A stretch of DNA of 64,000 nt, taken from Patescibacteria group bacterium. GTDB taxonomy: Bacteria > Patescibacteriota > Dojkabacteria > J137. The notes under the pieces are model-generated. The model ran no database searches and was not told where the DNA came from. It saw only the letters and a list, made by a program, of their open reading frames with translations. A program made the position numbers and the translations under genes. The stretch is taken from positions 598,229-662,228 of the forward strand of contig BOLA01000001.1 of the NCBI GenBank assembly GCA_016861265.1, read 5' to 3'. This document shows, piece after piece, positions 3,950 to 44,887 of this stretch; within the stretch, counting starts at the first letter, position 1; the number at the start of each line of letters is the position of its first letter.

Positions 3950-4324
3950 TTATATTTCAACAAAGTTTAGGCCCTTTATTCCACTAAAGTTTCCTTTATC
4001 TTCGGTTAATACGGAATATCCTTTTTGCATTGCAGTTGCTGCTACGTAGCTAACAGCAAGACTAACTTCAGTATTTCTTATAACCTTTGCAGCCTCATCC
4101 GCTAGGGTTTTATTGACCTCTACAACATTAAAATACTTATCAACGAAGTCCTTTACTTCCTTTTCTAGATTTGCATCCTCAAAGGTTCTGCTGGCAAGTA
4201 ATTCTGTGTATGTCGCAATAGAAATTACCATGTTATATTTTTCATAGGCAATTGGAAGGACTCCCTTTCCTGTCTTTAGATATTGCACTATTACACTTGT
4301 ATCTACAATTATTGTTTCTTTCAT
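3950..4324 (-). CDS. PIN-domain ribonuclease (VapC-like toxin)
   Basis: N-terminus MKETIIVDTSVIVQYL has the typical PIN start with the first catalytic Asp. Size is about 124 aa, with conserved acidic residues downstream. Sits 13 bp downstream of the partner ORF. Confidence 0.75.
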   Translation of the reverse strand: MKETIIVDTSVIVQYLKTGKGVLPIAYEKYNMVISIATYTELLASRTFEDANLEKEVKDFVDKYFNVVEVNKTLADEAAKVIRNTEVSLAVSYVAATAMQKGYSVLTEDKGNFSGIKGLNFVEI

Positions 4325-11411: not shown

Positions 11412-12275
11412 TTATACAGGCCTTGCTACAGCAACAAACCTATTTTCGTTGCTACCTAATGGAAAGCATGTAACCAGAGTTAAGGTTTTTTTGCCCCTTG
11501 CTCCCGTAATCACCGAGGTATCTGTAGGCTTTACAATCTTGCTACTTGCCATTACATAATTGTAGTCCTTGCCTTCCATTGTAATCGTAATCTCATCACC
11601 TACCTTTAGATTAGGTAGAAAGGAGAAGGCTACTTCTGGATCTTTTGGGTTAGGGTTGTAATTTGGACTAGCGCTGTGTCCATAAATTAGCATATTATTT
11701 TTTATATCAGATATAGGAAGTCCTGTGCTTTTAAAATGCGCCAGTTTTGTAAGTAGAACCTGGTTATAGACACTCTCTGTGGTGCTATCTACATTTGCTT
11801 CTACAGGTAAGTGATCTATTCCAATAGAAGGGATGGTTATATAAAACACACCTGTATAGTCAAAACTTACAGAGTCATCTTCTAACGTGTGTTCATTTAA
11901 GGCTTCGATTGTTAGTTCCTTAAAGCCTTCAGGCTTGGAAATATAGCTGGTAATATCTAAGTACTGGTCTGCGACAGGTGAAACATTGCCCTGGGAAAGG
12001 TATCCACCTGAGGTCTGAAAAGCCGCTTGTATATCAGGGAAGAATTCTTTATAGATAAATACTCCTCCAATTACAATAAAGATTAGTGGTAGAGCAAGAT
12101 TCGCTGTCGAGGACTTTTGCATTACATTGGTTAAATCCTTGTATATTCCCTTGGGGATGTACAGAATATTGTCAATGAAACCCCGCTTTTCGGTATAATC
12201 CTGTATTAAGAATTCGTCCTCAGGGACCGAGAATTTTTTAGGAGTTTTTGTTTTTTGGTATTTATAAAGTGCCAT
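11412..12275 (-). CDS. sortase family transpeptidase
   Basis: N-terminal TM (LALPLIFIVIGGVFIY). Catalytic His in LIYGHS, the TLxTC motif (KTLTLVTCFP) and the C-terminal Arg (RFVAVARPV). Confidence 0.8.
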   Translation of the reverse strand: MALYKYQKTKTPKKFSVPEDEFLIQDYTEKRGFIDNILYIPKGIYKDLTNVMQKSSTANLALPLIFIVIGGVFIYKEFFPDIQAAFQTSGGYLSQGNVSPVADQYLDITSYISKPEGFKELTIEALNEHTLEDDSVSFDYTGVFYITIPSIGIDHLPVEANVDSTTESVYNQVLLTKLAHFKSTGLPISDIKNNMLIYGHSASPNYNPNPKDPEVAFSFLPNLKVGDEITITMEGKDYNYVMASSKIVKPTDTSVITGARGKKTLTLVTCFPLGSNENRFVAVARPV

Positions 12276-13706: not shown

Positions 13707-14594
13707 ATGTATACAGATTTAAGTAATAAAGCTTCGAATAAAAATACTTCAGAAAGATACAGAATTTGGTTATTACAATCCCAATACGATTTAAAAGCCG
13801 CAGAAGAATCCCTTAAAGATAGATACTATGAGTGGTCATGCTATCAATCAGTGCAATCGGTAGAGAAAGCTCTTAAGGCAGTTATTATTCATGCTGGTTG
13901 GAGATCTCCAATGACCCATAAACTTGGTGTGCTGCTAAGCATGTGCAACAGAGCAAATGATAGTTTTAGAACAGTAAAATTCAATTTTAGAAAGATTGAG
14001 GCCTACACCTTTATTACAAGATATCCATTTATTTATCCTGATCAAAATATTACACCTCATGACTTAATAACCGAGAATGACGCCAAAACTTGTTTGGATA
14101 TTGCAACTTCTATGATTAACAAGGTAGAGGAATTTCTTCATCAGAAAAAGCCGAATTCACAAGATAAAGGCGATATTGATCTTGAAAATTACTACTTCAC
14201 TCCGGAAGAAGTTGAAGCAAGGCTAGAATCAGTTATAAAAGAACTATCTTCTGATTCACAATTACATGTTTCCAAAATTGTACTATTTGGTTCTTTTTCA
14301 AGAGAAAAATTACACCCAAGATCAAGCACTATGGATATGTTAATAGTTGCCGAAACAGAATTGCCATTCATTGAGAGAATTCAATATGTAAGAGAATTAA
14401 CTAAAGATGAGGAGCCAATTATTGAACCATTGATCTATACATCAAAAGAATTCGACTTTATGCTTAAGGACGAAAGAGAAGGTTATGTTGAAAGTGCAAT
14501 TGATGAGGGAAAAGTTTTGTTTGATAGATCCATTTCTGATACTAATGCAGATCAGGTGGGTGTACAGGAAGCCGCCCCAAGAATCACGACCTAA
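13707..14594 (+). CDS. fused HEPN-domain / minimal-nucleotidyltransferase (MNT-like) protein
   Basis: N-terminal HEPN-like helical domain with an Rx4H motif (RSPMTH). C-terminal NTase-like segment VLFGSFSREKLHPRSSTMDMLIVAE: the GS motif is present but the DxD acidic pair is degenerate. Confidence 0.55.
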   Translation: MYTDLSNKASNKNTSERYRIWLLQSQYDLKAAEESLKDRYYEWSCYQSVQSVEKALKAVIIHAGWRSPMTHKLGVLLSMCNRANDSFRTVKFNFRKIEAYTFITRYPFIYPDQNITPHDLITENDAKTCLDIATSMINKVEEFLHQKKPNSQDKGDIDLENYYFTPEEVEARLESVIKELSSDSQLHVSKIVLFGSFSREKLHPRSSTMDMLIVAETELPFIERIQYVRELTKDEEPIIEPLIYTSKEFDFMLKDEREGYVESAIDEGKVLFDRSISDTNADQVGVQEAAPRITT

Positions 14595-15718: not shown

Positions 15719-16393
15719 ATGAGAAAATTTGTGATATTCGCAGGGGCTTTAGTGATATTTGGAATAGGTGCTGCCGTCTTCTTACTCACTAATAACAGCA
15801 GTAGTGATACTGAAAATTTTACCCATCCTTTAAATGAAAGTTGGACTATTAAAGATGGTTATAGTCAGATTGATAATCAAGAATCCAGCTATAGATTTCA
15901 ATATAGATCAAGTTTATTTGTCACCGATACTCCAAGAGATGACTTCGTACATATTTTAGATGGCAATACCATAGCACTAGCATCTAAACCTTCCAGAGGA
16001 TATCAATTACCCCAAGTGAGTATAATATCGTTAGATAGATCTATTATGGGAGGTATGTCTCTTGAGAATTGGGTTAAGTATGCGTCATCAATGAGCTCGG
16101 AAGATATTCAATCAGATCATGAAAGATATAGATACTTAACAAACGGTTACAAAGTAATTTCGGAAGGGAAGATCTTCTTTTTAGTGGATCTAACTGGGTT
16201 CTCCAATACCCCACCAATTTTATTGTTTGATAATGGCAACAAGCTGATAGAAGTAGCAAGCTATTGGGCTGATGATCTATACTTTGAAATTTTACAGGAC
16301 TTTCAAGTCAAGTTCGATGATGGTTATCTACAGTTAACCAATGAGGAAGTAAATATTATTAAGACATACTATGAAGAAAATGACGTTTATTAA
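15719..16393 (+). CDS. hypothetical membrane-anchored protein
   Basis: N-terminal TM (FVIFAGALVIFGIGAAVFLL), no recognisable domain. The 3' end overlaps the next ORF by 23 nt. Confidence 0.4.
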   Translation: MRKFVIFAGALVIFGIGAAVFLLTNNSSSDTENFTHPLNESWTIKDGYSQIDNQESSYRFQYRSSLFVTDTPRDDFVHILDGNTIALASKPSRGYQLPQVSIISLDRSIMGGMSLENWVKYASSMSSEDIQSDHERYRYLTNGYKVISEGKIFFLVDLTGFSNTPPILLFDNGNKLIEVASYWADDLYFEILQDFQVKFDDGYLQLTNEEVNIIKTYYEENDVY

Positions 16394-17759
16394 AGTATTT
16401 GCACTAATCTTAATATCTTTCACACTATTATCAGGTTTCGATATTAGAGCAATTAAAAATGATGATTTACCTACTTCATTTGAAGCAAATAAGCTCACAG
16501 GTGGGATTGTAAGCTATCCTGTTAGTTCGCCAAAACCTCCATCCATAAAATTTGGAGATAGTATAAGTATTGATACAGCTTCGCTAGATGAAGCCAGATT
16601 CTTTGATTCTACCGATAATATTGAATACAGTGGTATTCTTAAAATCAGAGATACTCCATTTGAAGTTACACTTTTTCGTAATAGTCAAAATTTAAAGCTT
16701 CGGGAATGGGTAAATACTTTTTATCCACTTAATACAGTAGATGAAGATGGCTTCCTGAGCGATTTTACCGCTAAGCAATCCAGGGAGTTAAGTGCCAATA
16801 CTATGAGTTTATTGAATAAATATGAAGGTACCTATTATATTAGCTATCTTAAGGAGTACGAAAGAAAAGTACTATCATTGACATTCTCTATTGAGTATTA
16901 CGATGCAAATGATATTGATGAAATACTCAGCATGGTAAAAGTTGCAGGGAAACAATTTGATGATAATATATTCTCAGGAAAACAAGAGTTCAATCGTCTA
17001 AAAGATAGATTGATAGAATACAACAAAGAGAAAAATAATGTAAATCATTATGAGATAAGAACTAGAAAACTTGGAGCGGATACAGTTTACTATTTACCTT
17101 GGACGAAAGACCAAACATATCCAATAACACAGGATTGGGGAATCAATGATAATCCTATTGATTATAATTTGTCTCATTCCACTCAACCGAATGGGTATGC
17201 ATACGATTTTGGACTACCCGAAGGAACTGATGTACTGGCATCTAGTGAGGGCACTGTAACATATGCTCGCTCAGGATCGACAAGTTGTGGTGGGCCAAGT
17301 TATATAAATAGTGCAAATTATGTAGTAATAGCACATGCAGATGGTAAGGCTACTAACTATTATCATCTTCAGTCTATAAATGTTTCGGTAGGAGATAATG
17401 TGCAACAAGGGCAGTTAATCGGGAAGTCAGGAAAAACTGGATTTACTGCTGAATTTGATGGTGGGTCCTGTGCACCTCATTTACATTTTCAAAAACAAAT
17501 TCAGGGAGCAAGTTATACAGACTCAGTTCCAGTTATCTTCGCTGAATATTCAAATCAACCCGGTGACGGAGAAATTCCTTATCCTATGTCCGTTACTTCG
17601 CAAAATGAACTTACTACTGGTGGAGGCTCAAATTGTTTAGTTAAAACCGATTGGATAACTAATGGCCCAAATACAATATCAAATTCGAATTGTATTACGA
17701 TTAGGTCCGAATCTACGATTAGATCAATAAATGGTACAACTCGTTTTTATATACAATAA
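16371..17759 (+). CDS. secreted M23-family (LytM-type) peptidoglycan metalloendopeptidase
   Basis: Signal peptide. GYAYDFGLPEGTDVLASSEGTV ... NYVVIAHADGKATNYYHLQSINVSVGDNVQQGQLIGKSGKTG ... APHLHFQ supplies the HxxxD and HxH zinc ligands of M23. Confidence 0.8.
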   Translation: MKKMTFIKVFALILISFTLLSGFDIRAIKNDDLPTSFEANKLTGGIVSYPVSSPKPPSIKFGDSISIDTASLDEARFFDSTDNIEYSGILKIRDTPFEVTLFRNSQNLKLREWVNTFYPLNTVDEDGFLSDFTAKQSRELSANTMSLLNKYEGTYYISYLKEYERKVLSLTFSIEYYDANDIDEILSMVKVAGKQFDDNIFSGKQEFNRLKDRLIEYNKEKNNVNHYEIRTRKLGADTVYYLPWTKDQTYPITQDWGINDNPIDYNLSHSTQPNGYAYDFGLPEGTDVLASSEGTVTYARSGSTSCGGPSYINSANYVVIAHADGKATNYYHLQSINVSVGDNVQQGQLIGKSGKTGFTAEFDGGSCAPHLHFQKQIQGASYTDSVPVIFAEYSNQPGDGEIPYPMSVTSQNELTTGGGSNCLVKTDWITNGPNTISNSNCITIRSESTIRSINGTTRFYIQ

Positions 17760-18449: not shown

Positions 18450-19211
18450 ATGAAGACAATATTAATATATATGTTTATTTTCTCAATACTTGTAGGTAGT
18501 GTAGTTGCTGTAAATGCTGAGAGTAGATTTATCTCTTATCCAATACAAACAAATACAGAACTTCTTCAATACAATGTTTCCGAGAAAATGGAGTTAAATG
18601 AAGTTATGAAAGATCAAAAAGATATAAATCTACAGGATCTAGGTTTAGGGGTTCTTAATAAGAAAAGGGATCTGTACTACTACACCACAAAAGATCATAA
18701 TAGTTGGGGGGCTAATAAATTTATTAATGTATATTCATTAAAAGAGAAACGTATCATTCAAAGGATTCCTTTTGACAACACGGGATACTATAAATACCCT
18801 ATTTCAATTAGCCCAGATAATAAAAAGATTGTCCTAGCTGAAAGAGCGCAGAGCGTGGGCGAAGTTAATATCTTGGTAATAGATTCGGATACAGGTAATA
18901 CCTTAACCATATTTACAAAAGCTTATGCCCCTACCGCGGTATGGCTAGATTCTGATTCTGTAGTAACCATGTTTCCTCGCGTTAGTTGCTCAAGTAATAG
19001 ATACTGCGACCTCGATGGTATTAACTTAAAGCTAAGTAATCTGAAAATAAAAGAAGATAGACAGTTAGAGGTTAGTGGTAATGAAGTTTCACTGCAACTA
19101 GACCATCTAGAGTTAATTTCTGACAAAATAAATATTAGGTCGAAGCTACGAGAAGACAGCGAGCATGAGTCAAGGTTACAATTAAATGTTAAATTATTAA
19201 AGAATGAATAA
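18450..19211 (+). CDS. hypothetical secreted protein
   Basis: Signal peptide (ILIYMFIFSILVGSVVAVNA). No family recognised. Confidence 0.4.
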   Translation: MKTILIYMFIFSILVGSVVAVNAESRFISYPIQTNTELLQYNVSEKMELNEVMKDQKDINLQDLGLGVLNKKRDLYYYTTKDHNSWGANKFINVYSLKEKRIIQRIPFDNTGYYKYPISISPDNKKIVLAERAQSVGEVNILVIDSDTGNTLTIFTKAYAPTAVWLDSDSVVTMFPRVSCSSNRYCDLDGINLKLSNLKIKEDRQLEVSGNEVSLQLDHLELISDKINIRSKLREDSEHESRLQLNVKLLKNE

Positions 19212-19842
19212 ATGTGTTGCCTCCATATTTCTATTGATTATGATAATTTTTCCGTTACAAAAAACATTGGCTTGGGAATACCCTTCTAATGATAGTGGCT
19301 ACCCCTACAGAGATTCAGAGGAAGATTTAGTCGATCAATGGAATACATACACAAGAAATTGTACTTCATACGTAATGTGGAAGATAAATCAAACGGGTAT
19401 GAGTTTTAATAATAATCCCACGGGACCCAACGGTAATTCTACAACTATGGGGAATGCTGGTAACTGGGATGAACATGCTTCTAACATAGGCTATACTGTT
19501 GATAGCAATCCCGGTGCAGGGGATGTGATGAATTGGGAAGCTAATAGTGGTGGTGCAGGAAGTGCAGGTCATGTCGCATGGGTAGAAAAAGTTAACGATA
19601 ATGGAACAGTATTTTTATCGGAATGGAATTGGAATTATGGAGATGGGTTATATTCTGAAAGAAATGGCTATAGTGGAGATCACTACCTACACATTGCAAC
19701 TACTAGTGTCTTAAATTGTACACAAATTCAAAATATAACAATTAATTCAGGACAAAATCTAAACTGTTCAAGTAGTAATGTTAGAGTATTGCCTGAATCT
19801 CTATTTAGTAGTGGTAGTAGTATTAATTTAAAATCTATATAA
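19204..19842 (+). CDS. secreted CHAP-domain peptidoglycan hydrolase (amidase/peptidase)
   Basis: Signal peptide. CHAP catalytic Cys context (RNCTSYVMWKI) and His context (SAGHVAWVEKV), with aromatic Gly/Asn-rich spacing typical of CHAP. Confidence 0.7.
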   Translation: MNKCVASIFLLIMIIFPLQKTLAWEYPSNDSGYPYRDSEEDLVDQWNTYTRNCTSYVMWKINQTGMSFNNNPTGPNGNSTTMGNAGNWDEHASNIGYTVDSNPGAGDVMNWEANSGGAGSAGHVAWVEKVNDNGTVFLSEWNWNYGDGLYSERNGYSGDHYLHIATTSVLNCTQIQNITINSGQNLNCSSSNVRVLPESLFSSGSSINLKSI

Positions 19843-22242: not shown

Positions 22243-23466
22243 TTACAATTTGAATACATCCATTAAAAAGTCGGTAAATGTTCTCTTTTTCTTCACCTGT
22301 GGCAGCATAGTTTGAGACTGAGTCTGCAACTGTGTCTTCATAGAGTCAATGTGGCCTCCATGAACAATTATATTGTTTTTGGAAAGTTCCTGGTGTAATC
22401 GTGCAATAAGTAAGTTCTTATGTTCTAAAAGCTGGTTCATGCTGTTGTACATAGCCTTATTGTCCTGATTGTTGGCTTTAAGCTGGTCAATTTCTGCATT
22501 TAACCTGTTTACCTTATCGTTTAATTCCTTAAACTCCAGCGCTTCTTTTACTAATTTTGCATGGTCGTCTCCTTCTACAAGTTTCTTTAATAGTTCCATT
22601 TCGGCAACCCCAGTGTTTAAATGATAGTTTAAATCATTTTGACTTGGTTCCTTTCCTAAAACTTTTAGAAATACCTTTTTTATCATTTCTTTTCTTTCCT
22701 CACGATCCATTAGTATAGGTTTATTTGGAGTTGTGGAGTTGAATGGTGAGCTCGGATTGTTAAAAGATGATAATGGGGAGTTCCCAGCAAAACCAGGGGC
22801 TTTAGGAGCTTGGGGAGCGAAAGGGGATGGTGATGTAAAACTAGGCATTGGTGTTCTTCCTCCATTAAAGGCTGGTAAGGCTTTTGCTGTATATTTTAAC
22901 TTTGGCGCTACATTCACAATATACTCATTAACTGAGTCTGCGATTGCTTTTGCCAATTCATCAAGCTTGCTTTCGTCTTTTAGAATTTGAATATCATCCG
23001 AATTATCAATGTAAAGACATTCTATTGCTGTAGAAATAACATTTGATTGGTTCAGAATTATAAGTGAGCCCAATTCATGCTCGTATTCACTTTTTACTCC
23101 TTGATTTTGATACCCTGTAATTTTGCAGATTCCTTCAACTATTGAGTCTGCAAATATTTTGGAGTTATTGTCCGGAGATGCAGCTCCCTCAAACCAGCCT
23201 TCAATTCCTCTTTTTCCACCATCATTAACATGAATTTCAAGGAAAATGTCTCCAAGTTCTCTGGAATACCCTGTTTCTTTTATCCAATCAATTCTTTTTA
23301 ATAGTTGAAGATCTAAGGGTACGGCCTGGTACTCAATTTTGTGAGAATCTAAGTAGGGTAGAGTCTTCTTTAAAATTTTTCTTGTAATATCAGCTTCTCG
23401 TAAATCTCCGAAAACCTCACCGGGATTTTCTAATGTATGAGCAGCAGATATGAGTAACCTTGGCAT
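22243..23466 (-). CDS. N-acetylmuramoyl-L-alanine amidase family (Amidase_3-like) domain fused to a Pro-rich linker and a C-terminal coiled coil
   Basis: N-terminal 180 aa align block-for-block with Amidase_3 (SAAHT for AGHGG, EIHVND for SIHANA, GVKSE..LIILNQSNVISTAIECLYIDN for the C-terminal block). The rest is a P/S/N-rich linker plus heptad-rich helices. Confidence 0.6.
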   Translation of the reverse strand: MPRLLISAAHTLENPGEVFGDLREADITRKILKKTLPYLDSHKIEYQAVPLDLQLLKRIDWIKETGYSRELGDIFLEIHVNDGGKRGIEGWFEGAASPDNNSKIFADSIVEGICKITGYQNQGVKSEYEHELGSLIILNQSNVISTAIECLYIDNSDDIQILKDESKLDELAKAIADSVNEYIVNVAPKLKYTAKALPAFNGGRTPMPSFTSPSPFAPQAPKAPGFAGNSPLSSFNNPSSPFNSTTPNKPILMDREERKEMIKKVFLKVLGKEPSQNDLNYHLNTGVAEMELLKKLVEGDDHAKLVKEALEFKELNDKVNRLNAEIDQLKANNQDNKAMYNSMNQLLEHKNLLIARLHQELSKNNIIVHGGHIDSMKTQLQTQSQTMLPQVKKKRTFTDFLMDVFKL

Positions 23467-31335: not shown

Positions 31336-34300
31336 ATGAAAAGTGTATCAATAATAGTTACTATAGTAATGAACTCACCCCTACTAAGTTATAAAAAAAG
31401 AAAAAAACGAAATCGAAATATTATTCTTTCTAGTATAGTAATCACTTTTCTTTCTATAGCTATTTTCTCAAGATTATTCGCGGCCACAAGTATAAGTTGG
31501 AATTTTGATGTCGCAGAAGATTATTTATCCTCAGATAACAACAAGGTTCAAATTAATAACGGAGATGTAACTTTAAAACAAGTCGTTACAAACCTATCTG
31601 AAGATACAGATATCGAATTTAATGATGGAGAACATATTAATACAATGTCTTCAAATAATAAATTGACATTAGGGGGAACTAAATCTCCCGTTCCCTCAAA
31701 TTCGTCTGGACTTGTTGCGCAATATAGGGCTGAGAACAATTGGGATAATGAAAAGGGTACCGGTAGTGTATCTGTTGTGGGATCACCAACCTTTGTGGCA
31801 GGGCAGATAGGTACAGGGGTAAGTTTTGACGGTACTGATGATCAGGCAATCGTTAATTCTAATTTTGGTCTTACCACCACAAATATTTCTGTTGAGTTAT
31901 GGGTTAACCTAGATTCAATCTCAGAAAACGGATCATTTGTGAAAATTGGTGGAACGGGAAATGGTGGAATTGCTGTCGGGGTAGGTTCAACTACATTCTT
32001 AGATGGTGGTAATAATCTGATTCTTTTATATGAGGGAGTTCGATGGATTAATACAAATGTAAGGATTGGAACAGGCTGGCACCATATTGTAATGGTGGTT
32101 AATAGCTCCGGAGTTCCTTCCGCATATATAGATGGACGTCTGATTGGAACCTTTGCCGGTACTAATGCAATTGCCCCTGTAAACAACAATGTTTATATTG
32201 GAGGTTATTTCGCTTCAGGTGCTAGGTTTGCTGATGCAATCATAGACGAAGTATCGATATATAATATTGATTTAAGTGGGTCGCAGATATTTCAAAATTA
32301 CCAGAAAGGAGCCGCACTCATAGGAGAGTATACTTCTAGTGTAATTGATTCCAATGCAACGGATGGAGTGCCGTGGGATTCCTTAAATTGGATACCTAGT
32401 GGCCCCTATGGAGTTGAACTCCCAAATAATATGCAAACTGAAACAACTTACCCAACCGGTAATGTAGATATGAGTGGAAATCTTGCTCTTTGGCATTTCA
32501 ATAATAACGGACAAGATAGTAGTGGTAATAATAGAAATGGGACTTTGGCAGGCAACGCTCAATATGTAACCACTTCTAAATTTGGTAGTCACTCAGCTTC
32601 TTTCGACGGAGCTGGAGATTATGTTTCTTTAGGCAATAATGCATTAGGTAATTTAGGGAATTTTACACTTTCTGCATGGATTAAAACTCCAGACACAAAT
32701 ACCTCCAGATATATTCTCACTGAATTCAGACCAAGCTGCGGTGATGCAATTTGGTATATTGATGCAAATGGTATTCCTACGTATATAGATGGTGCAGTAA
32801 CATTAAATAGTGGAGGTACGAGTGTAGAGGATAATAAATGGCATCATATTGTTTACGTATATGGTGGAACCTATGGGAAGCATTACATCGATGGAGTTCC
32901 TCAGCCAAACTCCACCGGAGCAATTTGGAGAAGCACTTGCAGTGCTGCTGACGTAAGAATAGGAATTGATGCGCAAGGAGCAGGATCATTTTTAGGTAAT
33001 ATTGATGAATTAGCAGTATTCAATAGGGCATTAACCCAAGAGGAAGTATCAGCGATATATAACCGTGGTGGGCAAACAGTTAAATACCAAGTGAGAAGCT
33101 GCAACGATAACCTATGCGATGGGGAAAATTTTATAGGTCCTGACGGATCACCAAATACTTACTACTCAATAGAAAAAAATCAGGTTACTTCAAATCCATC
33201 CATAGAATTCTCTAATTTAAACAACAACAGATATTTTCAATATAAAGTAACATTAGAGGCCCATACACAAAATGCGCTTCCGACTATAGGTTCAATAAAT
33301 TTATCTTACGAAAGTTATGCAACTGATAATCCGTATGTAAACCCTGTTTCCTCCATAGACTTGGGCGGCATTCCAAAAACAATTTCTAAATTTTGTGAAG
33401 GCACTCTTAATGGTTCAAATGAATGTACTACAACAAGTGTAAAGCCATTGGGTACGGAAATTCATTATCAAATTTGTAATGATTTAGTCTCTAACTGCGA
33501 TATAAACAATACATGGAAGTACTGGGACGGTGATAGTTGGGAAAACGCAGATAATACAGAATTCAATACTGCCTCTGACGTTTCAAGTAATATCGAGCAG
33601 TTCATTCCTTCTTCAAGATATTTATCGTTTAAATCATTCTTAAGTTCAGGAGGCAATTCTACACCAACACTAAAAGATGTTTCGGTCTCCGCTACTTTAG
33701 ATGGAATCCCACCAGTAACGAATGCATCAAATATTCATTCAAATGGTTACAACAGTAATGACTGGATAAGAAATAAACCCTTAATAGAATGGAGTGAAGG
33801 AGAAGATGATCAAGAAGGGGTAGGTCTTCTGGGTTACTGTGTGGCACTAGACGAATCTAACCTGGGAAGTAGTCAGAATTTAAACCCTTCAACAAGCGCT
33901 GGAGTTTTACAGAGTCTAGATGATGGAGTTTCTCAACAATATTGTCCATACATTGTTACGGGTACAAGCATTAATTTGAATTCAATTCAGGGGCTGAATC
34001 TAGTTACAAATAAACAATATAATTTTTCAATTAAGGCGGTTGATATTTCCGGCAATATTTGGAATGGAAGCAGCGAGGATTATCAAGACTTATTTACATT
34101 CCGATATGATGGTACTGCACCTAATAATCCTGCTTTTATTTCAATGCCAAGTAATTTTATACAAAGTAAGGATGTAACAATAACCTGGCCAACGGAAGGA
34201 GCAAATGGTGCAAGCGATGTAGGTTCGGGATTGGCCGGATTACAATATAGGATAGGGCAGAATGGTGTATGGTATGGAGATCTTCACAATGGCAATCAAG

Positions 34301-36312
34301 ATTTAACAGATTTACTTGTTAATGATGGTACATATACAACAAACCCGGAAGTAGATTACGAGAATTTAATAGACGGGTCGAACATAATTTACTTTAGAAC
34401 AGTGGATAATGCAGGAAACTATTCGATCTCTAATGTAACTGGTGTGTTAAAGATAAATACAACTGCCCCTAACCAGGTTCAGAATTTGCAAGTGAATCCA
34501 AGCGATAATATTGTTAATTCTTATTCCTTTAATTGGAGTGTTCCCGATACATTCATAGGTGAAGCCAGTGGATTAACCTATTGCTATACCGTAAATACAT
34601 TGCCAAACGGGAATAATTGCACATATACAGCAGCCGGAATAACAACTATTCCAAGCGATGCATTTGCAACTCAGCCTGGAACAAACAACTTTTATGTAGT
34701 GGCAAAAGATGAAGCGGGGAATATAAATTACGATACATATTCAAGCATCCAGTTTACGTATTCAGGGGAAGCTCCTGGAATACCATTGAATGTTGATGTT
34801 GCAGACATATCTACTAAAGAGACCCAAGACTGGAAGTTAGCAGTAACCTGGGCCGTACCTACAAATGCCGGAGCAGGAGTTAGTAGTTATAAAGTTTACA
34901 GATCATCAGTAGAAAATGCGGCTTGTAATTCAAACATGAATAACTTTAGTCAGGTAAGTAGTGTAGCAGGAACATCGTTTATCGATACAGGCTTAGAGCA
35001 GCAAGACTATTACTATTGTGTAAAAGCATGTGACAGTGCGAATAATTGTTCCGCTGTATCAAGTACTAAAGTAAAATATCCAACAGGTAAATATACTTCG
35101 CCGGCGAACCTAGTATCGGGTCCAGAACTGAATGCGGTAACAACAAAGAAGGCAGTAATTAGTTGGGTTACTGATAGAAGAAGTGATTCAAAAATACAGA
35201 TAGGGCTATCTAGTAACGACTACTTTGAGGCAGAAAGTGCAGTTTCAGCACAGGTAACATCACATACGGTGACCCTTGATAATCTAGCTGCAGGAACAAC
35301 ATATTATTATCGAGCTAAGTGGACTGACGAGGATGGCAACACCGGAATAAGTGAAGAGAAATCTTTCACTACAAACCCACCTCCAAGTATTGTTTCCACA
35401 AATGTGACTAATATTGGAATTAATAGCGCTTTACTTCAATTAAGAGTGAGTGGAGCAACAAAAGCAACAATACTATACGGCATTGAAAGTAATTTTAACC
35501 TAGTAAAGGAGGTCTTAACTTCTTTCACAGAGAGTAGTTATACAATTCCACTAGAAGATCTAAATGATAATTCTAGATATACATATAGAATAAGATTGTC
35601 AGATATCGAAGGCGCAGAATACTTAAATCTAGAGACTAATGAATTCACTACCTTACCAAGGCCTACGGTAAGTAATATTGAAATTGAGGAAATTAAAAAT
35701 GTTGCACAGCCTACTGTGAAGGTAAACTGGACCTCAAATACTGAGATTTCCTCCATAGTTACTTTCTATCCATCAAACTCAGAAGATCAGGCTAGAGATT
35801 CAATTAACTTAGATTTAGTAAAAGAGCATCAATTAGAATTATCCGGATTAATGGCAAACACTAGATATGTTTTGATTGTAAAAGGTATTGATAAATTCGG
35901 AAACGAAGCAATTTCTTCACCTCAGTTGTTTAATACTGCTACAGATACAAGACCGCCAAGAATATTTAATGTAAAGGTTGAAGCGGTAAATCCCGACAGC
36001 AGTGAAAATACATCACAAATAATTGTAAGTTGGGAAACTGACGAGTTATCTACCAGTCAAGTAGAGTACGGAGAAGGTACTAACGGAGGCTATTCTCAAT
36101 CCACCCAAATAGACAAAGGTTTAGGTTACAAGCACGTTGTAATAATTACGAATCTAAAGCCTGCAAGCGTGTACCATCTAAAGGCAATTAGTGAGGATAA
36201 TAGTAAGAATACGAGCGAGACGGGGAATATAGTAACAATAACTCCAAAGCAGCAAGAGAAGGCCTTTGACATTGTACTTAAGGGCTTAGGAGATATTTTT
36301 AGTTTCCTGTAA
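31336..36312 (+). CDS. giant (1658 aa) secreted surface protein with two LamG/concanavalin-A-like lectin domains and multiple fibronectin-III / purple-acid-phosphatase-N-like beta-sandwich repeats
   Basis: Signal peptide with a basic n-region (KKRKKRNRN) and an LFA|AT cleavage-like site. LamG_3-like blocks (DGTDDQAIVNS...ISVELWVNLD...GWHHIVMVVN; FDGAGDYVSLGNNALGNLGNFTLSAWIK...KWHHIVYVYGG). FN3/PAP-N-like blocks (WVTDRRSDSKIQIGL...TTYYYRAKWTDEDGN). A possible alternative start lies 11 codons downstream. Confidence 0.7.
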   Translation: MKSVSIIVTIVMNSPLLSYKKRKKRNRNIILSSIVITFLSIAIFSRLFAATSISWNFDVAEDYLSSDNNKVQINNGDVTLKQVVTNLSEDTDIEFNDGEHINTMSSNNKLTLGGTKSPVPSNSSGLVAQYRAENNWDNEKGTGSVSVVGSPTFVAGQIGTGVSFDGTDDQAIVNSNFGLTTTNISVELWVNLDSISENGSFVKIGGTGNGGIAVGVGSTTFLDGGNNLILLYEGVRWINTNVRIGTGWHHIVMVVNSSGVPSAYIDGRLIGTFAGTNAIAPVNNNVYIGGYFASGARFADAIIDEVSIYNIDLSGSQIFQNYQKGAALIGEYTSSVIDSNATDGVPWDSLNWIPSGPYGVELPNNMQTETTYPTGNVDMSGNLALWHFNNNGQDSSGNNRNGTLAGNAQYVTTSKFGSHSASFDGAGDYVSLGNNALGNLGNFTLSAWIKTPDTNTSRYILTEFRPSCGDAIWYIDANGIPTYIDGAVTLNSGGTSVEDNKWHHIVYVYGGTYGKHYIDGVPQPNSTGAIWRSTCSAADVRIGIDAQGAGSFLGNIDELAVFNRALTQEEVSAIYNRGGQTVKYQVRSCNDNLCDGENFIGPDGSPNTYYSIEKNQVTSNPSIEFSNLNNNRYFQYKVTLEAHTQNALPTIGSINLSYESYATDNPYVNPVSSIDLGGIPKTISKFCEGTLNGSNECTTTSVKPLGTEIHYQICNDLVSNCDINNTWKYWDGDSWENADNTEFNTASDVSSNIEQFIPSSRYLSFKSFLSSGGNSTPTLKDVSVSATLDGIPPVTNASNIHSNGYNSNDWIRNKPLIEWSEGEDDQEGVGLLGYCVALDESNLGSSQNLNPSTSAGVLQSLDDGVSQQYCPYIVTGTSINLNSIQGLNLVTNKQYNFSIKAVDISGNIWNGSSEDYQDLFTFRYDGTAPNNPAFISMPSNFIQSKDVTITWPTEGANGASDVGSGLAGLQYRIGQNGVWYGDLHNGNQDLTDLLVNDGTYTTNPEVDYENLIDGSNIIYFRTVDNAGNYSISNVTGVLKINTTAPNQVQNLQVNPSDNIVNSYSFNWSVPDTFIGEASGLTYCYTVNTLPNGNNCTYTAAGITTIPSDAFATQPGTNNFYVVAKDEAGNINYDTYSSIQFTYSGEAPGIPLNVDVADISTKETQDWKLAVTWAVPTNAGAGVSSYKVYRSSVENAACNSNMNNFSQVSSVAGTSFIDTGLEQQDYYYCVKACDSANNCSAVSSTKVKYPTGKYTSPANLVSGPELNAVTTKKAVISWVTDRRSDSKIQIGLSSNDYFEAESAVSAQVTSHTVTLDNLAAGTTYYYRAKWTDEDGNTGISEEKSFTTNPPPSIVSTNVTNIGINSALLQLRVSGATKATILYGIESNFNLVKEVLTSFTESSYTIPLEDLNDNSRYTYRIRLSDIEGAEYLNLETNEFTTLPRPTVSNIEIEEIKNVAQPTVKVNWTSNTEISSIVTFYPSNSEDQARDSINLDLVKEHQLELSGLMANTRYVLIVKGIDKFGNEAISSPQLFNTATDTRPPRIFNVKVEAVNPDSSENTSQIIVSWETDELSTSQVEYGEGTNGGYSQSTQIDKGLGYKHVVIITNLKPASVYHLKAISEDNSKNTSETGNIVTITPKQQEKAFDIVLKGLGDIFSFL

Positions 36313-36354
36313 ATTTTAATGAAATATATTTCTAATTTTATAGAATAGTTGGTA

Positions 36355-38643
36355 ATGAATAATCCAATCATAGAAGTAAAAAATGTTTTTAAAGGATATA
36401 GAGTAACGCCTAGCGATGTTCTAGTTCTAAAGGATGTTAGTTTACAGATTAATAAGGGAGAATTCATTGTAATCTTTGGACCCTCAGGGAGCGGCAAATC
36501 CACCTTATTGAATATAGTAATGGGATTAGAAAAACCTACTAAGGGTAAGATAACTTTTAAAGGTGTCGAAATCTCCACTTCTACCGAAGATGAGCTTGCG
36601 GAATTTAGGAAGAGAAATATTGGTATCGTTTATCAGCAATCCTATTGGGTAAAATCATTAAATGTAGTTGAAAATGTTGCGTTACCGTTAATTCTAAGAG
36701 GAATAGAGAAGCAGACTGCAGAAGCAAGTGCACTTACTTTATTGAATTCACTCGGAATGAAGGAATGGGCTACTTATCACCCACACGAGCTTTCTTCGGG
36801 CCAACAGCAAAAGGTATCCTTGGCCAGAGCTTTAATTACAAATCCTGAAATTATTATTGCGGATGAACCTACAGGAAATCTTGACTATAGAAGCGGACAG
36901 CTTATTACTTCTTATTTAAAAAAACTGGCTGAATCAGGAAAGACTGTTATTATGGTTACTCATAATCTGGATAATTTAGATTATGCAGAAAGAGTAATAA
37001 ATATTTTTGATGGAAGAATCGCAGACGATTTTAAATTAAATACTAGTAATCTAGATGAAGTTAAAAAAGCCCTAATCACTGAAAAAGCTCATGGAAGTGT
37101 CCAAGATGACTATGGAGTTAAAAAAGAGTTGGATGTTCTAATAACAGGGCAAACAAAGCTATACGAGGATATAAATAGGGACAAAGGTTTAGGTAGAGTA
37201 CTTAGAAATTTAAAACATATAATTACTTCTATCTTTTTAGGAGTTTTGCTAGTAATTTATAAATTTATAGATGCCTTCCTTGGTATAAGGTTAATGCCTT
37301 CTTTTATACAGAGTCTAAGATCCCCGATTTCAAATCTTTTTAGAGGGGTTGTTAATTCCATTGATCAAAATAAAGAAAGTATAAGTTACTTTGATATTTT
37401 TAATTTGTCGCTTAAAACTTTATTCTCAAAAAAGAATAGAACGGCTGTTACCATAGGAGGAATTGCATTCGGAATAGGGTTTACTGCGTTCTTAATATCA
37501 ATTGGGTATGGTTTGGAGCAACTTGTGATATCTAGATCGGCCCAACTCGAGCAACTAAGACAGATTGAAGTTTATCCACCCTTAGGTGAAAGTATTACAA
37601 TTAATGATGCCTCTATAGCAACAATTAAATCAATTAACCAAGTTGAGAAGGTCCTTCCAGTTATTAATGCAGCAGGAAAGGTGAATTATCAAAATTCTAA
37701 CATTGATGTTGTTGTTTATGGAGTTCAATCTGATTACCTCCGATTATCAGACTCTGTACTGGTATCGGGAGATTACTTTAAGAGTAATTCGAATACCAAG
37801 TTAGATATTCCAGTATCTGCACCAGTTTCCATGCCCGTAGGCGCGGAATCCAGTTCTTCACTTGAACGCAAGGCCGTTGTTAATATTGCATTCTTAAATT
37901 TAATTGGATTAGACTTTAATTCTGCTGTGGGCAAACAGTTTAAGTTAGGCTATATTCCCGTTAATAATCTAGAAGGATCAAATTCAAATGTATTATTCAA
38001 TTATGATTATGAAATTTCTGGAGTATTATCCACAGATGAATCTCCCGTGATATATACACCAATCGACGAAATTAAAAAGGCGGGCATAAATAACTATTCT
38101 CAAATTAGGATTGTGACTTCTGATCAATCTCAAGTCTTTTCAATAAGACAACAACTGAATGTGCTGGGTTATAGAACAACCTCGGTTCAAGATACTATTG
38201 CACAAATTGAAGGCTTTTTTAGTACAGCCAGAATTATTTTTGCGGCGGTTGGACTTGTGGCTTTATTTGTGGGTTCGTTGGGAATGTTTAACACACTAAC
38301 AGTTTCATTACTGGAACGAACTAGAGAAGTAGGCCTGTTAAAGACAATGGGTATGAAATCAAAAGAAATTAGAGAAGTGTTCTTATCGGAGGCAATAATT
38401 ATGGGAGTTTATGGAGGAATAGTAGGTATTATTATCGGAATTGTGGGAGGGTATGTAATTTCATTTATAATCTCTACAATATCCATATTGAGGGGCTATG
38501 AAGGGTTAGTAATTACCTATCTTCCTTTTACAACGGCAGTAGGAATAATCTTGGTTTCGGCATTCACTGGTATTGCAACAGGATTCTATCCATCAAGAAG
38601 GGCAACAAAGATTTCTGCACTAGATGCATTAAGATATGAATAA
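36355..38643 (+). CDS. MacB-type ABC transporter with fused ATPase and FtsX-family permease
   Basis: Walker A ([16 protein letters not shown]), ABC signature ([15 protein letters not shown]), Walker B ([12 protein letters not shown]). A TM then a large extracytoplasmic domain, and C-terminal FtsX-type helices. A TTG at 36349 is an alternative start. Confidence 0.85.
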
Positions 38644-38704
38644 TAAGTATCGTGAGTTAGTAAACTCAGATGTTATAATCATATAAATATATCTTGGAGG
38701 ACAC

Positions 38705-38815
38705 ATGAGATTCCTTAAGCGTCTGCTGAGATACATTAGTGCTGTGGGGAATTGGGTTTTCATTGAACTCGATGATAACCGTTGGTCAGAAACAAGACCA
38801 TTTCCTAAGTTCTAA
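38705..38815 (+). CDS. candidate small protein (36 aa, MRFLKRLLRYISAVGNWVFIELDDNRWSETRPFPKF)
   Basis: Strong SD (GGAGG, 4-nt spacer) before the ATG, a TATAAT about 25 nt upstream and a terminator hairpin directly after. Below the ORF-track size cutoff. Confidence 0.35.
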   Translation: MRFLKRLLRYISAVGNWVFIELDDNRWSETRPFPKF

Positions 38816-38816
38816 T

Positions 38817-38850
38817 GGAAAAGGCAGCTGCAAAAAACAGCTGCCTTTTT
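38817..38850. terminator. rho-independent terminator (AAGGCAGCTG-CAAAAAA-CAGCTGCCTTTTT)
   Basis: Perfect 10-bp stem plus U-tract. Sits between the small ORF and tRNA-Asn. Confidence 0.7.
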
Positions 38851-38863
38851 AGTATTTAATAAA

Positions 38864-38935
38864 CTCCGATTGCTGGATTCGAACCAGCGACCAATCGCTT
38901 AACAGGCGAGCGCTCTACCGCTGAGCTAAATCGGA
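38864..38935 (-). tRNA. tRNA-Asn (anticodon GTT)
   Basis: The reverse complement folds as a cloverleaf: acceptor TCCGATT/AATCGGA, D-stem GCTC/GAGC, anticodon loop CTGTTAA (GUU), T-stem GCTGG/CCAGC with loop TTCGAAT, discriminator G. No CCA encoded. Confidence 0.85.
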
Positions 38936-39009
38936 ATGTGCTTTAAATTGCGTAGAATTATATCGAATACAAACATTCCTGTCTACGTTAATTGTAAACG
39001 GTGCGAGTA

Positions 39010-43476: not shown

Positions 43477-43928
43477 GGGGATGCTTTTTAGACAGTAAAC
43501 CTGCATATTAAAAATCAAGTCGGAATTTAGATTATTTGTTCCGTAAAAATAAGTAATCACCAGTAATGGTAAATGACTATAAACGTCAATCAAATTAAAA
43601 CAGCTGTATCAAACGCAGTTGCTAATGTAAAGGCAGCTTTTGCTCCTCAATACAACCTAGCATTTGCTTAATTTGAGCAGTCGTTAATCGAAAAAAAGAG
43701 TAGATTAACCGTTTTTTAATTTCTCTTCCAGTGGAAATTACTAAACGACACTTAGCTGGAACGCAAAATTTATTCTTAGTTTACGAATAGATTCCAAGTT
43801 TAGGTAGACTAGAGTATTTGGTGTTTTGCTAGTTTTAAGCCTTTTACTCTTAAACAAAAACTTGTCTAAGCTTGTAAGAACTTTTAATGTGAGATTTGTT
43901 GGACAGGGATTATCCCTCATCTCCACCA
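43477..43928 (+). ncRNA. ssrA: transfer-messenger RNA (tmRNA, SsrA), about 450 nt
   Basis: 5' GGGGATG pairs with 3' CATCTCC-A-CCA to give a 7-bp acceptor stem with the G3:U70 alanine identity pair and an encoded CCA. An internal tag-like reading frame (...GCA GTT GCT AAT GTA AAG GCA GCT TTT GCT CCT CAA TAC AAC CTA GCA TTT GCT TAA) would give (AV)ANVKAAFAPQYNLAFA*. A hairpin terminator follows at 43929-43960. No protein-coding signal beyond a spurious antisense ORF. Confidence 0.55.
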
Positions 43929-44002
43929 AAAGGGCATCTTTAATTTTATTAAAGGTGCCCTTTTTTGTTATCATTGATGTGCATCTAAATTTAATACAAC
44001 AT

Positions 44003-44887
44003 ATGGACATAACTATCACCCTTTTATATCAGCCAATTTTCAACTTAATAGTCGTTTTTTATAGATTCTTTGGAGAGAACTTGGGTGTCGCAATTATCCT
44101 AATTGCCTTACTTTCCAGACTAATAACTGTACCAATTCTTGTAAAGCAACGAAAATCAATGGTTAAAAACCGTGAATTTACAGAAAAAAGAAAAGAATTA
44201 GAGAAAAAACACAAAAATAATAAAGAAGTATTAGATAAAGAAATGATGGCTTTGAATTCTGAATATCTGCCCGGACAATTAGCAGGTTGTCTTCCTATTA
44301 TTCTGCAGCTAATCTTCTTTATTAATGTTTACCAGGTTATTACTAACCTAATTATGCATGGAGCAGAGGCATTTAATAGTTTAGCCTATCCTGCAGTCGG
44401 CCAATTTCCAAGCGGATATCAGTTAAATTATTCATTCTTAGGAATCTTCGATTTAGGTAAAGCTCCTGCAAATTTCTCTAGCGATGGATTAGTCTTCTTG
44501 CCTTATTTAATTCTAATGATTCTAGTAGGTATTACACAGTATTACTCAATGAAGATTACAATGAACATGAGTAAAACAAGTACTACAGAGAATAAGACTA
44601 AGTCAAAGGAAGATAAGAAGAAGGACAAAAGTAAATCTAATCCTGCCTCTGAGGACTTTGCTGAGATTTTGCAGCAATCAACACAACAAACAATGCTATT
44701 ATTTCCTGTTCTTTATACATTCCTTTCGTATAACTTCCAAGCTGGGTTGGCAATATACTGGATTGTTCAGAGTGGTTTTGTTATAATCCAACAGTTCTAT
44801 ATTTCGTGGTTAGATAGGCGTGCAAAGGCAAAGGAGCAAGACTTGGTTCAGCCTGAAGCAATAACTGTAAATGTAAGACCAAAGTAA
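44003..44887 (+). CDS. yidC: membrane protein insertase YidC/Oxa1 family (short, monoderm-type core)
   Basis: The core begins LLYQPIFNLIVVFYRFFGENLGVAIILIALLSRLITVPI, followed by a charged loop and C-terminal TM helices with a basic tail. The track ORF begins at a TTG at 43826 but runs through the tmRNA terminator hairpin, so I favour ATG 44003. Confidence 0.75.
   Translation: MDITITLLYQPIFNLIVVFYRFFGENLGVAIILIALLSRLITVPILVKQRKSMVKNREFTEKRKELEKKHKNNKEVLDKEMMALNSEYLPGQLAGCLPIILQLIFFINVYQVITNLIMHGAEAFNSLAYPAVGQFPSGYQLNYSFLGIFDLGKAPANFSSDGLVFLPYLILMILVGITQYYSMKITMNMSKTSTTENKTKSKEDKKKDKSKSNPASEDFAEILQQSTQQTMLLFPVLYTFLSYNFQAGLAIYWIVQSGFVIIQQFYISWLDRRAKAKEQDLVQPEAITVNVRPK

Follow-up and report, generated by a model that had tools for sequence, protein, structure and literature searches.

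Linked genes for a giant surface-protein candidate and a MacB-type ABC protein in diverse Patescibacteria

A stretch of 64,000 nucleotides (nt) of contig BOLA01000001.1 (assembly GCA_016861265.1, positions 598,229 to 662,228 of the forward strand; hereafter the window, G+C content ~35%) from a Dojkabacteria genome (Patescibacteriota) contains a gene for a giant protein with laminin G-like (LamG) and fibronectin type III (FN3) domains (31336..36312, + strand; 1658 amino acids (aa) from the ATG at 31336, according to the list of open reading frames (ORFs), the translation and Pfam). It is followed on the same strand by a gene for a 762-aa MacB-fold (type VII) ATP-binding cassette (ABC) protein (36355..38643, +), identified by Pfam, by its AlphaFold2 model and by matches in the PDB. 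Direct reading of the 42-nt intergenic spacer (36313..36354) reveals no terminator-like hairpin, so the two genes are likely to be co-transcribed. A reading of the letters made earlier and without database searches (hereafter the sequence-only reading) had proposed that the two genes, separated by about 40 nt, could form a unit of surface protein and exporter together with a 36-aa ORF farther downstream. As judged from sequence, the giant and MacB-type genes are indeed a two-gene cell-envelope module present in diverse lineages of Patescibacteria; the 36-aa ORF is not part of it.

Linkage of the giant and MacB-type genes

Directly upstream of every MacB orthologue inspected, and on the same strand, lies a gene for a large protein ending in fn3/Pur_ac_phosph_N domains. 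The orthologues inspected are 88% (locus L006), 78% (L088), 66% (L090), 52% (L091), 51% (L092) and 44% (L093 and L094, the latter with the source name Doudnabacteria) identical to the MacB-type protein of the window. The orthologous pairs stand beside unrelated genes in L007, L091, L092, L093, L094, L175 and L176, and the flanking genes, including those after the MacB gene, vary among eight annotated loci. Furthermore, a homologue of the giant protein with 44% identity (P0003) is encoded in a different context, with an ATPase and a MacB_PCD/FtsX permease encoded separately after it. The sequence-only reading had suggested a synteny check and had named beforehand the absence of synteny in any relative as the result that would speak against it; for the giant and MacB-type genes, the synteny turned out to be strongly conserved.

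Metagenome contigs were scanned with the conserved C-terminal module of the giant protein (described below), which yielded 80 loci (44-60% identity). Many partner genes end at contig edges; 75 loci were evaluable, i.e., at least 700 nt of sequence were available past the last tail-bearing gene. In 70 of the 75, the start of a MacB-type nucleotide-binding domain (NBD) lies on the same strand no more than 600 nt downstream, and in one further locus it lies at 2 kb. The median gap between the tail-bearing gene and the MacB gene in these 71 related loci is 40 nt. The ABC protein is fused in nine loci, the other 62 being split or in a state that could not be scored. As a control, generic MacB loci were taken from other phyla (80 loci, 1.24 Mb). 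They originated from a contig scan with a MacB alignment, which was caught by generic ABC motifs (DEPTGNLD) in many phyla and was useless for orthologue synteny. The module was present in only 2 of these 80 loci, each time directly upstream of MacB.

In eight loci, two tandem tail-bearing giant genes precede a single MacB gene. The tandem giants have differing heads (Kelch-like versus DUF2341/LamG), e.g., at 319-11650 of L145 and 122-9075 of L149, and also in L153, L168, L169, L173, L113 and L115. At 7-4947 of L091, a second copy of the giant gene lies directly upstream of the intact one (1660 aa). This copy is broken up, with 978 aa in its LamG part and 507 aa in its FN3/tail part, and its C-terminus is identical to that of the intact copy; it may stem from a recent tandem duplication followed by disruption, or else be an artefact of the assembly. 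A heliorhodopsin gene is located two genes upstream of the cassette in L092 (2398-3165). Note also that a contig titled 'uncultured Gammaproteobacteria' (L008, CAYYYW010000001.1; 38% G+C) carries a full cassette, consisting of a 2398-aa giant with the tail followed by a split MacB, and is probably a mis-binned Patescibacteria contig.

Architecture and conservation of the two proteins

The giant protein is a candidate for a secreted surface protein, its location being read from the sequence. The likelier start of the gene is M12 (ATG at 31369, 1647 aa), which gene callers chose on four of the five contigs of the same species and which puts a basic n-region ahead of the hydrophobic core. The N-terminal signal peptide or signal anchor (31369..31482, +; MNSPLLSYKKRKKRNRN-IILSSIVITFLSIAIFSRLFA) contains a conserved 'LFA|A' site, the 'RLFAA/KLFAS' motif being kept among the orthologues, and is the single hydrophobic segment of the protein in the hydropathy analysis. 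An N-terminal hydrophobic signal (signal peptide or signal anchor) is present as well in 39 of the 41 full-length partners elsewhere. Pfam detected all three of the families named for this protein by the sequence-only reading, i.e., Laminin_G_3 (two copies, whole-protein E 6e-43), Pur_ac_phosph_N (two copies, 3.5e-21) and fn3 (8e-09). The two jelly-roll domains postulated earlier thus correspond to two LamG (concanavalin-A-like) domains, which form a variable head: LamG1 at residues 165-318 (31828..32289, +; E 2.7e-19) and LamG2, the most variable part of the head, at residues 424-572 (32605..33051, +; E 3.9e-27). They are followed by a beta-rich spacer of Ig/FN3-like domains with a weak Big_13 match (33052..35070, +). 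The last FN3-like domain of the spacer (34786-35070, +) carries a conserved Cys motif, YYYCVKACDSANNCSA, as seen in alignment A2 and by direct reading.

The C-terminal part consists of a conserved stalk and a short tail. The stalk (residues 1246-1634; 35071..36237, +) comprises four FN3/Pur_ac_phosph_N-like domains according to alignment A2 and AlphaFold2, and this module of about 390 residues is 43-92% identical among distant partners. Its model has a mean predicted local distance difference test (pLDDT) score of 89.6, with nearly all 10-residue blocks over the four domains above 90. The four FN3 sandwiches modelled in the last 400 residues and the FN3-like one directly before them account for the at least five sandwiches counted in the sequence-only reading. 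A Foldseek search of the PDB with the stalk model returned generic eukaryotic tandem FN3 arrays as the best matches and gave no functional hint. The tail proper (ITPKQQEKAFDIVLKGLGDIFSFL; 36238..36309, +) stands at the extreme C-terminus and contains a predicted amphipathic helix of about 18 residues (hydrophobic moment 0.56) with the pattern ITPK..A.D.V...L...F.F. The monomer model places this helix at residues 1644-1655, where pLDDT is low (~50), as would be expected of a segment that becomes ordered upon binding to a partner.

Among 186 unique sequences the tail consensus is ITPK-ATDNALDLVI-NL-E-F(94%)G(74%)F(82%), followed by 0-10 more residues; 169 of them conform to it. A profile of the module matches the protein of the window over the full module length (E 8e-254) and retrieved 3912 cluster representatives at E <= 1e-30. 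Among the best 148 of these 3912, about 135 possess the module together with a tail variant at the extreme C-terminus, with a median protein length of 1568 aa. A second tail variant, some of whose source names are Saccharibacteria, ends in ...IFGF/IFGL, and here, too, ABC_tran and MacB_PCD/FtsX follow. The source names of module and MacB homologues include WWE3, Woesebacteria, Roizmanbacteria, Shapirobacteria, Doudnabacteria and Saccharibacteria. What the partners have in common is the C-terminal four-FN3 stalk with the amphipathic helix, not the LamG head. We propose to define the family by the four-FN3 module, a helix of the above pattern and a MacB gene downstream on the same strand, all of which are found in the window (gap 42 nt).

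The giant protein has no LPXTG motif and ends in ITPKQQEKAFDIVLKGLGDIFSFL followed by the stop codon, in line with the sequence-only reading, which had noted this lack in spite of a sortase gene in the window (11412-12275, -). A C-terminal transmembrane (TM) helix and a consistent basic tail are lacking as well. A regex search across the 64-kb window revealed no LPXTG-type ORFs, and the substrates of the sortase must be encoded outside it, elsewhere in the genome. Furthermore, RTX repeats were not detected in the giant protein by Pfam. NCBIfam contains no model for the protein or its tail (only sub-threshold matches to TafC in the LamG region and to MXAN_2561 in the FN3 region), Pfam has none for the stalk-tail signature, and a megablast of the region against phage records returned nothing. 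A role in a surface layer (S-layer) was rejected: its sole support was a weak match of LamG to PDB 4qvs ('S-layer domain-containing protein', E 2e-5), which is uninformative on lattice formation.

Conservation increases from the head to the tail. The giant protein is 71% identical overall to its L006 orthologue. LamG1 is 69% identical to that of L006 and 25-29% to those of more distant orthologues, LamG2 is only 32% identical to its L006 counterpart, and the values against L006 rise to 56% for residues 573-800, 82-85% for residues 801-1245, 92% for the stalk and 100% for the tail (88% for MacB). In other lineages the heads are of other types, i.e., DUF2341+LamG, Kelch-like repeats or RCC1/WD40 propellers. 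Such a gradient is the pattern of a predicted surface protein with a conserved cell-proximal end and a variable end that would bind something external. The divergence of LamG2 suggests that the domain was replaced or that the head is under strong diversifying selection.

The fused MacB/FtsX-type ABC protein recognized in the sequence-only reading is confirmed by Pfam, which finds ABC_tran (2e-35), MacB_PCD (3.2e-14) and FtsX (5.3e-16) in a single chain; ABC_membrane was not matched. Its AlphaFold2 model (pLDDT 82) has full-length best matches to MacB structures in the PDB (5GKO, 5LIL and 5NIK_J; E 3e-44 to 6e-39), with the highest target-normalised TM-score for 5NIK_J (0.82), E 2.9e-44 for 5GKO_A and 23% identity to MacB. 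The NBD (36355..37029, +) contains Walker A GPSGSGKST, the signature LSSGQQQ, Walker B with the catalytic Glu (IIIADEPT) and the H-loop His203; these motifs and H203 are invariant in 60 orthologues (alignments A1 and A4), and the domain is 40-44% identical to the NBDs of the MacB and Spr0694 structures. The linker between NBD and the elbow helix/TM1 carries an extra hydrophobic helix of 31 residues (37189..37281, +; hydropathy 2.23, model helix 279-309). Most split permeases of the clade have it, too, at their N-terminus, but L007 lacks it. A simple TM helix is impossible at this place of a fused protein, and the linker helix may be re-entrant or interfacial.

TM1 continues into an extracytoplasmic stalk extension (37432..37539, +; hydropathy, model helix 360-395), followed by the extracytoplasmic domain of about 215 aa between TM1 and TM2 (37540..38184, +), which is a candidate docking site for the partner, matches MacB_PCD (Pfam residues 363-601) and is modelled as mixed alpha/beta. 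The TM2 stalk and TM2-TM4 form the FtsX domain (38185..38640, +; Pfam FtsX 631-754; hydropathy; helices 611-654, 669-712 and 725-751). The protein thus has the features of the type VII (MacB-fold) superfamily, i.e., the NBD motifs, a four-TM FtsX-type permease with a TM1-TM2 insertion and a full-length fold match. It nevertheless stays far below the curated cut-offs for MacB (NF007826, 282.3 bits vs 966), LolD (TIGR02211, 201.1 vs 307.75) and FtsE (TIGR02673, 197.9 vs 264.85). Many residues of the extracytoplasmic domain and the TM2 stalk are invariant in 107 cassette-linked sequences and different in 18 generic MacBs; the invariant extracytoplasmic residues specific to the clade are S448, D451, Y455, P564, P569, R598, G605 and T608. 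This clade-specific conservation would fit a conserved protein partner. No gene for a MacA/HlyD-type adaptor is found next to MacB in the window or in the eight annotated related loci.

The 36-aa ORF and the surroundings of the pair

TATAAT and GGAGG stand ahead of the 36-aa ORF (38705-38815), and after it comes a strong hairpin flanked by T-runs on either side (38818..38850; 13 pairs, 6 of them GC, in the terminator scan). The -10 box, the Shine-Dalgarno sequence and the terminator attributed to it in the sequence-only reading are therefore present as letters. However, promoter-like and terminator-like matches in the region are no commoner than in shuffled sequence, and the hairpin is not specific to the ORF, because it sits between convergent genes: a tRNA-Asn gene (38863-38936, -) faces the giant and MacB-type genes, and the hairpin is a probable bidirectional terminator for their transcript and for the convergent tRNA-Asn. 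The Rfam matches in the window are confined to two tRNAs and the transfer-messenger RNA (tmRNA).

Gene callers do predict the ORF on same-species contigs. It lies within an indel of about 170 bp in the spot between the MacB stop codon and tRNA-Asn (38644-38862), which is present on same-species contigs only. These ~170 bp are missing in L088, where the order of MacB and tRNA-Asn is the same and tRNA-Asn is kept, and a UDG-like gene occupies the spot in L006. A tblastn search of all 176 fetched loci retrieved only five 100%-identical same-species contigs. Neither Pfam nor NCBIfam contains a family match for the 36-aa product, which has no leader or hydrophobic signal and forms a single-member cluster. 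The segment is a small variable spot beside a tRNA gene. Of the proposed trio, the linkage of the giant and MacB-type genes in relatives stood, and the peptide gene, which is absent from L006, L088 and the other cassette loci, did not.

The locus is surrounded by core chromosomal genes, encoding isoleucyl-tRNA synthetase (IleRS), Fmt, an AI-2E transporter, LexA, DsbB, YceG, RuvX, tmRNA and YidC; FtsA/FtsZ, sigma-70, ParAB and signal peptidase are encoded farther off in the window. The yidC ORF as listed (43826-44887) begins with a TTG at 43826 and thereby runs over the 3' portion of the tmRNA gene (43477-43928). Since YidC is called shorter on same-species contigs, with 294 aa, this overlap is an artefact of the ORF list. 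Elsewhere in the window, one ORF (13707-14594, +) joins a HEPN and a Pol-beta-type nucleotidyltransferase domain in a fused toxin-antitoxin-like arrangement, and a PIN-domain gene (3950-4324, -) adjoins tRNA-Pro.

Possible function of the pair

The MacB fold has no transmembrane path for a substrate and converts ATP hydrolysis into extracytoplasmic work (PMC5985334). Since the fold acts outside the membrane and the partners found here have signal sequences of their own, 'exporter', the word used in the sequence-only reading, is probably the wrong one for the ABC protein. Exported partners of such systems are EnvC/PcsB/RipC, LolA, MacA and TesA (PMC7668044; bioRxiv 10.1101/2025.05.16.654284). 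From the Sec signals, the conserved C-terminal module, the tight gene linkage and these properties of the fold, we infer that the ABC protein engages the giant protein outside the membrane. Sec rather than the ABC protein would carry the giant across; the ABC protein would then, at the outer face of the membrane, engage the stalk and helix of the C-terminus and retain the giant at the surface with its variable heads outward, in place of an LPXTG/sortase-type anchor. ATP-driven mechanotransmission could load, reposition or actuate it, as FtsEX does with EnvC/PcsB or YbbAP with TesA. The pair would likely serve to adhere to the surface of a host or substrate or to recognise it. To this reading, i.e., docking and retention with ATP-driven loading or actuation as a sortase-independent anchor for a variable-headed adhesin, we assign a probability of about 0.45; it is thus tentative.

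The closest functional parallels are FtsEX with EnvC/PcsB/RipC/CwlO and YbbAP-TesA. In these systems, a MacB-fold ABC machine with an extracytoplasmic domain between TM1 and TM2 performs ATP-dependent work outside the membrane on a separately exported partner whose gene is linked to the ABC genes (PMC5985334; PMC7668044; bioRxiv 10.1101/2025.05.16.654284). However, their partner is a hydrolase or a hydrolase activator, whereas here it is a multi-domain, lectin-headed surface protein of about 1500 aa, and the partner element is an N-terminal coiled coil there and a C-terminal four-FN3 stalk with a helix here. Moreover, with its ~215 aa and its match to MacB_PCD, the extracytoplasmic domain has the size of that of MacB, not that of FtsX (Porter and X-lobe, no Sabre). 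On account of this size, the sub-threshold FtsE score and the different partner, the idea that the protein is the FtsEX of the organism was rejected. Separate ftsE and ftsX genes have been reported in other Patescibacteria (PMC13059738, PMC11809585). The window contains genes for wall hydrolases near ftsA/ftsZ (Peptidase_M23, 16371-17759; CHAP, 19204-19842; Amidase_3, 22243-23466), and, should the genome encode a separate FtsEX, the M23 protein would suit the role of its client better.

MacAB-TolC is the best structural match and shares the fused NBD-permease chain, as in MacB itself. It differs in that the cassette lacks a MacA-type adaptor, in the identity of only 23%, in the sub-cut-off MacB score and in the extra hydrophobic linker helix; TolC is not expected in a monoderm. 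Sortase-anchored LPXTG adhesins of Gram-positive bacteria (MSCRAMM-type) resemble the giant in their N-terminal signal peptide, variable distal binding domain, beta-sandwich spacers and conserved C-terminal retention element. In contrast, the giant lacks the LPXTG motif, the C-terminal TM helix and the consistent basic tail, and the gene linked to it encodes an ABC ATPase, not a transpeptidase.

Several explanations compete for the same observations. After Sec export, the MacB-type protein could pull the C-terminal helix out of the outer leaflet, so that the giant is released, passed to the wall or an S-layer, or shed, the ABC protein then being a processing enzyme. The linkage, the tail and the Sec signals agree with this extraction equally well. 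LolCDE, a relative with the MacB fold, works on an exported protein at its membrane-associated end and extracts membrane-embedded moieties from the outer leaflet (PMC5985334), its structures 9rld and 9rlc were among the Foldseek matches, a single MacB for two tandem giants suits an enzyme-substrate relation, and the tail is hydrophobic on one face and in many cases ends in basic residues (GGLKK). However, the substrate end would be a C-terminal amphipathic helix instead of the N-terminal triacyl group of LolCDE, and the LolD score is under the cut-off. The tail keeps specific polar residues (D/N, N, E/Q) and the F-G-F end, beyond the hydrophobicity that a membrane-parking signal requires, and is too polar and short to span the membrane; the conservation of the 390-residue stalk equals that of the ABC protein, suggesting a lasting structural role; and the cassette has no conserved gene for a LolA-like acceptor, the genes after MacB varying among the annotated loci. 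The organism is also presumably a monoderm, in contrast to those with LolCDE. We regard extraction as the strongest of the rival explanations, but as somewhat unlikely. It is more doubtful still that the two genes are co-transcribed with separate functions, the ABC protein being a MacB/BceAB/YknYZ-like device for peptide or toxin efflux, resistance or wall remodelling and the giant an independent adhesin with a wall-binding C-terminus. MacB-family proteins of monoderms often handle peptides or antibiotics (PMC5985334), and homologues are annotated at source as 'antimicrobial peptide transport system permease'. On the other hand, adjacency in 71 of 75 loci, maintained down to 42-44% MacB identity, through fusion and splitting of the ABC protein and amid unrelated flanks, is hard to explain without a direct tie, the more so as the module accompanies so few generic MacBs in the control, and the clade-specific extracytoplasmic domain favours a conserved protein partner over varied small substrates.

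A mechanism like type I secretion, in which the C-terminal helix would direct the entire giant through the ABC protein without Sec, is suggested by the combination of a giant repetitive adhesin candidate, a signal at the extreme C-terminus and an adjacent ABC gene, as in the loci of RTX/Lap adhesins (LapA with LapBCE). It is very improbable, since the protein has the MacB fold with an FtsX-type four-TM domain rather than an HlyB-type ABC_membrane domain, this fold is channel-less (PMC5985334), the partners carry N-terminal Sec signals, and neither RTX repeats nor genes for a membrane fusion protein or an outer-membrane factor are found here. That the transporter exports or matures a bacteriocin-like 36-aa peptide together with the surface protein can hardly be credited: the TATAAT box, the GGAGG sequence, the hairpin and the gene calls speak for such a peptide, but the ORF is confined to one species, and the loci lack the conserved precursor-peptide gene beside the transporter that marks a peptide or bacteriocin export cassette.

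Docking and retention, which we prefer to these alternatives, has weak points of its own. Gene linkage speaks for a shared function and is silent on which function it is, and the Lol-like extraction or release just discussed fits the same data. Four of the 75 loci have no MacB in the 1.5-2.1 kb available downstream, the counted loci are phylogenetically non-independent, and the taxonomic breadth rests on few available source names. A merely flexible tail would show the same low pLDDT in the model as one that orders on a partner. With these reservations, the pair probably forms a previously undescribed surface machine, as its domains and linkage suggest. Full-text literature searches found no published description of the C-terminal signature or of the MacB linkage, and within the limits of that literature the giant would be a client of a new class for a type VII ABC system. 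A bolder version, which we consider unlikely, combines an ATP-powered surface machine with sortase-independent anchoring in monoderm ultrasmall bacteria: the MacB-type mechanotransducer would grip the helix and stalk of interchangeable giant adhesins and turn ATP hydrolysis in the cytoplasm into force or movement at the tip of a rod several tens of nm long. An episymbiont could thereby be pulled onto its host or ratchet along the host surface, or host contact could be signalled in reverse.

Patescibacteria (also known as the candidate phyla radiation, CPR) comprise a large share of bacterial diversity, and the cultivated ones live attached to other microbes. To our knowledge, the molecules with which they recognise and hold their hosts are, apart from type IV pili, largely unknown. 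Large FN3/concanavalin-type surface proteins of Patescibacteria have been mentioned as adhesin candidates (PMC13059738, PMC11809585). The module described here turns this vague class of 'large surface proteins' into a defined family with a C-terminal signature, hypervariable ligand-binding heads and a dedicated ATPase partner, and it offers concrete, testable targets. To the type VII systems for efflux, lipoprotein extraction, hydrolase activation and lipid hydrolase coupling, the module would add a fifth kind, the client being a giant structural surface protein, and it would suggest a sortase-free way of retaining surface proteins in wall-bearing monoderm cells.

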